Below are positions 1,766 through 2,319 of a DNA stretch of 2,319 nucleotides, piece by piece. Below the pieces are notes generated by a model that saw only the letters and a list, made by a program, of their open reading frames with translations, was not told where the DNA came from and ran no database searches. Source of the DNA: Naegleria gruberi (Eukaryota); assembly GCA_000004985.1 (NCBI GenBank), contig GG739271.1. One strand, given 5' to 3'. The translations under genes and the position numbers were made by a program. Position 1 is the stretch's first letter, and each line of letters opens with the position of its first letter.

Positions 1766-1872
1766 TATATTAATAATAATTAAATAATATTTTAATAATC
1801 TTTATCATATAATTGTTAACAGAATTTTACACAAAATCTGTTCCAATTACATGTTATTATCTTTGTAATATT

Positions 1873-2319
1873 TTAACGTAAGTTTTGAATTGAATTGTAA
1901 ACTCGTTTAGTAACACTTGTAAAAGTACCATCATCTATTTTAGAAATTGAAACTCTTTCCATTGACTGAATAGATGCTTTGAATTTTGATTGATAAACTT
2001 GTCCTCTCTTTTCAGTTGCAAGATTAAATGGTTCCATTGGTACATTTCTATGATTATTTGTAGTAGTAATAGCACTCTTGAGTGTTGATGAATTATTAAA
2101 ATCTGGCATTGGTCTTGCCTTGAAAGAGTGTGGTAATTTTGGTCCAATAATTGTTGATGCTACACACGACGATGCTACAGATGCTGAGGAAAGAATTGAA
2201 TCTTTAAATGATGATTTAACTTTTGTAATATTTGGTGAAACTGGTACAGTAACTGGTTTGTGTAAAATCTTTGATGTATCTACATTTGTATAGTGATGAA
2301 ATGGTCTAGCTTTAAATAC
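1873..2319 (-). CDS. C-terminal part of a TPX2-family microtubule-associated protein; partial CDS that continues past the window end at 2319, stop at 1873-1875
   Basis: The minus-strand frame (plus-strand triplets ending at positions that are multiples of 3, e.g. 2107-2109) has no stop from 2319 down to TAA at 1873-1875. It translates to VFKARPFHHYTNVDTSKILHKPVTVPVSPNITKVKSSFKDSILSSASVASSCVASTIIGPKLPHSFKARPMPDFNNSSTLKSAITTTNNHRNVPMEPFNLATEKRGQVYQSKFKASIQSMERVSISKIDDGTFTSVTKRVYNSIQNLR*. The motifs FKARP(x)P(x)F (twice), KFKAS, TVPVSP and PFNLATEKR match what I recall as conserved TPX2/WVD2-family motifs (FKAxPxPxF; vertebrate TPX2 C-terminal PFxLATEKRA and TVPVSPxF). Codon usage is the same AT-biased set as the LRR gene (CCA, ACA/ACT, TCA, AGA, GGT). 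Supplied ORF 1873-2109 is just the portion after the internal Met at 2107-2109. Confidence 0.6.
   Translation of the reverse strand, partial: VFKARPFHHYTNVDTSKILHKPVTVPVSPNITKVKSSFKDSILSSASVASSCVASTIIGPKLPHSFKARPMPDFNNSSTLKSAITTTNNHRNVPMEPFNLATEKRGQVYQSKFKASIQSMERVSISKIDDGTFTSVTKRVYNSIQNLR

Follow-up and report, generated by a model that had tools for sequence, protein, structure and literature searches.

The terminal open frame and its surroundings

The window, that is, the whole stretch of 2319 bases analysed in the current study (28% G+C), carries at one end a reading frame on the minus strand (1873-2319) that very probably represents the last 148 codons of a Naegleria gruberi TPX2 homologue, truncated where this small 2319-bp scaffold ends. 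The frame consists of 148 sense codons (1876-2319) followed by a TAA stop codon at 1873-1875, and its translation is free of stops up to the window edge, where it runs off at position 2319. The supplied ORF track contained a 78-aa ORF at 1873-2109, which is the portion of this frame from its first in-frame methionine onwards (residue 71, 2107-2109), a false start. The initial annotation had proposed that this ORF under-calls a longer frame, and the translation of 148 codons without a stop up to 2319 confirms it. ORF lists that start at the first methionine after a stop under-call genes running off contig ends. The G+C contents at codon positions 1, 2 and 3 of the minus frame are 37.6, 43.0 and 12.8%, respectively, which constitutes a strong coding periodicity.

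The motifs that had been named for the extended frame are all located in it. FKARP is present in two exact copies in the window, the first of which (FKARPF, residues 2-7; 2299-2316, minus strand) opens a stretch aligning with the last approximately 32 residues of vertebrate TPX2 (human residues 713-744, Xenopus chain positions 205-237). Residues 2-34 of the fragment (FKARPFHHYTNVDTSKILHKPVTVPVSPNITK) align with the human stretch, the extreme C-terminus of a 747-aa protein, and the TVPVSP motif within them (residues 24-29; 2233-2250, minus strand) aligns with 'LTVPVSPKF' of the human protein, the last residue of which is number 744 of 747; T24, P26, S28 and P29 are invariant in the five orthologues. 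The second copy, FKARPMPDF (residues 66-74; 2098-2124, minus strand), aligns with the Xenopus 'FKAQPLPQF' (chain positions 59-67) and also with the human 'KFKALPLPHF' from residue 565. It is followed by PFNLATEKRG (residues 97-106; 2002-2031, minus strand), a conserved element at the start of a TPX2 repeat helix, which aligns with 'EPFDLEIEKRG' in Xenopus and 'EPFCLETDRRG' in human TPX2, and in which P97, F98, L100, T102, E103, R105 and G106 are invariant among the five orthologues. Taken as a whole, residues 57-114 gave their best alignment with human residues 565-617 and Xenopus chain positions 58-110.

The AlphaFold2 model of the fragment has a low confidence (mean pLDDT 57.1, pTM 0.18) and contains a single predicted alpha-helix at residues 102-119 (TEKRGQVYQSKFKASIQS; 1963-2016, minus strand), placed directly after PFNLA, the rest being coil. 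At this low confidence, a single helix in that position would be consistent with the TPX2 repeat family, and the model lends weak support to a helix context of the FKARP motifs. The frame closes with a C-terminal tail, SISKIDDGTFTSVTKRVYNSIQNLR (residues 124-148; 1876-1950, minus strand), that is conserved in heterolobosean orthologues.

At lower window coordinates, on the 3' side of this gene, the plus strand carries a leucine-rich-repeat (LRR) coding region at 1125-1741, made of 72-nt (24-aa) RI-like units of the type 'KQLTNLDISxNxIGxxGA' (repeat family D1) and matching Pfam LRR_8 with an E value of 6.8e-12. Its reading frame is broken, with one frame covering 1125-1370 and a different one 1361-1738, and at approximately 1365-1375 a 'KQLTN' piece seems to have been deleted (ISKMKY* / LNICENNIG). 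No in-frame ATG was found upstream of the LRR region, and positions 1-1100 hold no ORF longer than 44 aa; a pseudogene, an error in the assembly or an unrecognised intron might explain the broken frame. The LRR region and the TPX2 gene converge tail-to-tail across a 131-nt A+T-rich spacer. The gene order 3' of TPX2 differs between the two species of Naegleria, since in N. lovaniensis the gene is followed on the same strand by a non-LRR gene of 216/235 aa with no Pfam domain (L002 8271-8978, plus strand) instead of the convergent LRR region of N. gruberi. In the ORF-free A+T-rich part of the window, a direct repeat, TA(T/A)G(G/A)AGTGTCACC, occurs on the plus strand at 909-922 and 1002-1015, the copies being 93 nt apart, and is probably a chance or degenerate repeat. 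Besides, 'AGTGTCAAC/GTGTCAAT' strings are found at about positions 738 and 887.

Relatives of the fragment and its assignment to the TPX2 family

In a word-indexed search, the 148-aa fragment gave no protein match at E <= 0.01, and its relatives were found only when 1.84 billion representative proteins were searched exhaustively with phmmer. This search returned five proteins, namely heterolobosean orthologues and one FKARP-repeat protein. The best match is a 698-aa protein (P0001; E 8.5e-88) whose C-terminus agrees with the window translation in 147 of 148 residues, and whose gene lies on a 2316-bp metagenome contig from ENA (L001). This contig and the window can be aligned over 509 bases (window 1811-2319 against L001 2316-1808) with 99.4% identity, three mismatches and no gaps; one of the mismatches is non-synonymous (F/I at residue 7, window 2301), one is synonymous and one lies in the 3' flank. 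Upstream, L001 continues the frame into an uninterrupted single-exon ORF of 698 codons that begins with an ATG and is preceded by in-frame stops. The prediction that the remainder of the gene lies beyond 2319 thus holds in a copy 99.4% identical, in which the frame extends to a complete 698-aa ORF and is interrupted just upstream by neither a stop nor a frameshift. In N. lovaniensis, too, the orthologous gene consists of one exon (L002 6001-8112). A bacterial and archaeal contig collection scanned for exact DNA matches to the window yielded none, and exact-sequence contig look-ups with the 148-aa, 78-aa and LRR ORFs and with two further proteins (P0006 and P0007) gave no match either.

The Naegleria gruberi TPX2 gene is already known and present in NCBI and UniRef. 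The 90% cluster of the 698-aa protein includes two N. gruberi entries, XP_002682286.1 / EFC49542.1 and XP_002668150.1 / EFC35406.1. The former (NAEGRDRAFT_45723, UniRef100_D2V0L2) has 699 aa and is encoded on a 941,567-bp scaffold, while the latter ('predicted protein, partial', 134 aa) is identical to window residues 15-148, has a 2319-bp contig as its recorded source and, judged by these two facts, is NCBI's gene model for this very gene. NCBI therefore holds a partial model on this scaffold as well as a full-length model on the main scaffold, and the earlier statement that the gene had been truncated stands for the supplied ORF track but not for that track alone, as NCBI, too, annotates a partial protein of 134 aa. 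That model begins at residue 15 (TSKIL..., window 2277), although neither the open frame nor its conservation ends before 2319 (2278-2319, minus strand), and it is thus 14 codons shorter than the sequence supports.

The initial annotation expected the Pfam TPX2 model PF06886 to be found in the 148-aa translation, but the fragment reached 17.2 bits (E 0.0049), below the gathering score of 25. Among the full-length heterolobosean orthologues, none has PF06886 listed at E <= 0.01, and of the five C-terminal fragments four gave weak matches to it (best E 1.4e-4). On the other hand, the search for PF12214 (TPX2_importin), which had also been proposed, was positive in each of the four full-length representatives tested, with 74.6 bits in P0001 and 79-102 bits in the proteins of N. 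lovaniensis (P0002), Willaertia magna (P0003) and a JGI metagenome (P0004), against a cut-off of 29.5; the domain is situated outside the window and hence not in the fragment itself. UniRef lists the N. lovaniensis protein as 'TPX2 central domain-containing protein'.

Comparison with solved structures gave a marginal match of the single 148-aa sequence to Xenopus TPX2 alpha5-alpha7 (PDB 8cx6, E 0.0018). When the five full-length sequences were combined into a profile (A1), it matched human TPX2 (PDB 6bjc chain T) with an E value of 4.6e-14, colinear with human residues 324-744. A profile restricted to the window-equivalent region of the five orthologues (A3, 140 positions) matched human TPX2 with E 5.2e-10 (42.9 bits) and Xenopus TPX2 alpha5-alpha7 with E 8.2e-8; the next best solved structure had an E value of 0.68, so that human and Xenopus TPX2 are the sole significant matches. 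Together with the PF12214 domain of the full-length relatives, the A3 match bears out the proposed TPX2-family gene, and the assignment is well supported by sequence comparison, not only at the level of the gene but also for the fragment encoded in the window. Divergent TPX2 C-termini are under-detected by PF06886, whereas a small profile built from the lineage picks them up clearly.

Proteins of the WVD2/WDL type have the PF06886 (KLEEK) domain as essentially their sole defining feature. The Naegleria protein shares TPX2 repeat motifs with plant TPX2, TPX2-like and WVD2-WDL proteins, but differs from the last in having the central PF12214 domain and in missing the PF06886 threshold. For these two reasons it is closer to canonical TPX2, with a central domain and C-terminal repeats, than to WVD2-like proteins, and we rejected the WVD2-like membership suggested by the initial annotation. 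The FKARP-repeat protein returned by phmmer (P0005, 1029 aa) matches window residues 63-113 with E 2e-8, reaches 57 bits with PF06886 and is apparently a TPX2-like protein with an expanded set of repeats. This protein, which comes from NCBI, contains more than a dozen FKA[RL]PMP[DGN]FY units, roughly 30-40 residues apart.

Chance frames, the antisense ORF and the second copy

In an A+T-rich stretch of low complexity, a long open frame might arise by chance and its motifs resemble those of TPX2 by coincidence, and the sub-threshold single-sequence Pfam match and the empty word-indexed search would fit such an origin. We modelled the length of such frames with 2000 first-order Markov simulations of the window, counting any frame. 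The longest stop-free run had a mean of 80 codons (sd 16) and reached at least 148 codons in only 6 of the 2000 simulated sequences, and the real run is additionally shortened by the window edge. Together with orthologues in four heterolobosean lineages, an alignment with 30 invariant columns and the profile match to human TPX2 at E 5.2e-10, this leaves the chance explanation a practically negligible probability, and it was rejected on the phmmer orthologues, the alignment conservation and the profile match. The same simulations bear on the plus strand ORF at 2078-2293, which encodes 71 aa from a TTG within 79 stop-free codons. Of the 2000 simulated sequences, 1370 contained 71 or more consecutive codons free of stops, and the ORF found nothing better than E 0.11 in Pfam. 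It lies entirely within a coding sequence conserved across four heterolobosean lineages, and FKARP and TVPVSP give rise to its strings GLALK and GETGTV as shadows on the reverse-complement strand. A 107-aa antisense ORF is also present opposite the TPX2 gene of N. lovaniensis (L002 7527-7850, minus strand), and this parallel, along with the existence of the ORF itself, might speak for a real gene or a second overlapping gene on the plus strand. However, its strings 'GRALK' and 'GDTGIV' are in turn shadows of F(K/R)ARP and TxPVSP, parallel to those of the window ORF; conservation of the sense strand can mimic conservation of an antisense ORF. Considering that the length is expected by chance, that a family match is lacking, that the apparently conserved strings are shadows of minus-frame motifs and that the minus frame belongs to a conserved ORF of 698 aa, we rejected a plus strand gene as highly improbable. 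The ORF is best regarded as an artefact, as had been suggested, a non-coding shadow of the TPX2 frame, with which its chance-level length and the lack of a family match are consistent.

A further question is the status of the window copy relative to the locus on the main scaffold. Over the window region, the two differ by four substitutions (F7I, A to S, I to V, M to I) and one missing Asn, corresponding to 97% protein identity, and the main-scaffold protein, XP_002682286.1, is 99% identical overall to the full-length protein from the metagenome. These differences, including the single-residue indel, might be those of a truncated or decaying duplicate, i.e., a pseudogene fragment of the TPX2 locus on an unplaced scaffold, and the adjacent LRR frame on the plus strand, broken by a frameshift near 1361-1375, would fit such decay. 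So would residue 7 (window 2301), which is Phe (TTT) in the window where L001 and the five full-length sequences have an invariant Ile (I557 of P0001). However, of the differences from L001 this F/I change alone is non-synonymous, and with its position 19 bases from the contig end it could have arisen in sequencing; the Phe might reflect a read-end error instead of a polymorphism. The 148 codons contain neither a stop nor a frameshift, there are just two coding differences (one synonymous and one non-synonymous) from an independent contig with an intact complete ORF, and the strong A+T bias at third positions has been retained. A pseudogene fragment is improbable in the light of this evidence. 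The scaffold most likely carries another haplotype of the NAEGRDRAFT_45723 locus or a duplicate of very recent origin, and a separately assembled second haplotype is the most economical reading. The small scaffold probably duplicates, as a haplotig, a locus of the main assembly.

Repeat organisation, C-terminal extension and potential function

TPX2 repeat units comprise about 50 aa in tandem, with an alpha-helix in the first half of each unit (PMC5080731), and the FKARP motif has been defined as a repeated element that follows a helical segment (PMC5379942). In the full-length Naegleria protein P0001, five F[KR]A[RK][PK] motifs are present. We propose that the window fragment corresponds to the last two units of the C-terminal tandem-repeat region of TPX2, followed by a tail specific to Heterolobosea. 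The first unit would be degenerate, running from FKARP to TVPVSP and matching the extreme C-terminus of vertebrate TPX2, and the second would be a full unit comprising FKARPMPDF, PFNLATEKRG and the putative helix. As TPX2 units are tandem repeats, the register is ambiguous and does not allow a one-to-one assignment to vertebrate units; the full-length and the window-only profiles place the window units in alternative registers on vertebrate TPX2.

The Naegleria protein has in common with vertebrate TPX2 (human Q9ULW0 and Xenopus) the FKARP and TxPxSP motifs, the PFxLxTExRG repeat starts, a predicted helix after PFxL, the central PF12214 domain and the colinearity with human residues 324-744. 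The core of PF06886 corresponds to human TPX2 662-718, the alpha7 helix (PMC5080731). The Naegleria stretch equivalent to this long vertebrate helix is much shorter, which is probably why the PF06886 score is sub-threshold. Besides, window residues 2-34 align with a region whose Xenopus equivalent, residues 689-716, is the Eg5-interaction region and necessary for that interaction (PMC5379942). By position counting along the 8cx6 alignment, in which chain position 1 is taken as Xenopus residue 477, F74 of the window falls on Xenopus F543 and F98 on F562. Replacing either of these Xenopus residues abolishes branching microtubule nucleation, and F562 lies within a gamma-TuNAb-like motif (PMC5379942).

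Beyond the window, on L001, residues 33-47 and 79-83 of P0001 read IEEEWEFNAPKYFDFD ... DQWFF, with columns invariant in the five full-length sequences. By eye, we take this N-terminal block to resemble the Aurora-A-binding stretches of human TPX2, YSYDAPSDFINF ... DSWF. A profile of the block (WEFxAPxYFxFD ... DQWFF) found no TPX2 chain among the PDB sequences. The Pfam Aurora-A binding model had no match in the full-length orthologues; this model is restricted to Euteleostomi (PMC5080731).

The N. gruberi TPX2 has previously served as an outgroup for the plant TPX2 family (PMC7139753), and mitosis-specific transcript expression has been reported for a Naegleria TPX2 homologue (bioRxiv 10.1101/2024.01.08.573270). 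By homology, the whole protein would bind spindle microtubules via its repeat region and might promote microtubule nucleation in the centriole-free mitosis of Naegleria, with the FKARP and PFxLxTExRG elements acting as functional contacts.

The Naegleria protein differs from vertebrate TPX2 at its end, since it extends approximately 115 residues past the vertebrate end point, a stretch made up of an additional FKARP unit and a tail specific to the lineage. The tail follows the pattern S-[IF]-S-x-[IL]-DDGT-[FY]-TS-x-TK-x-V...LR, and S124, G131, T134, K138, V140, L147 and R148 are invariant in A3; the invariant final LR supports 1873-1875 as a genuine stop. Conservation of residues 124-148 extends over N. 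gruberi, Willaertia and P0004 and is weaker in N. lovaniensis, and these residues have no aligned TPX2 counterpart in any of the PDB matches (vertebrate TPX2). This heterolobosean C-terminal extension with its tail is the sole mildly new observation of the current study. That the tail of this extension, which like the extra FKARP/PFxLxTExRG unit is wholly encoded in the window, represents a new partner-docking motif of heterolobosean TPX2 is a tentative and rather unlikely proposal. If it is true, the tail could replace or supplement the kinesin-5-binding tail of vertebrate TPX2, and may be adapted to the acentriolar closed mitosis of Naegleria with its divergent mitotic tubulins.
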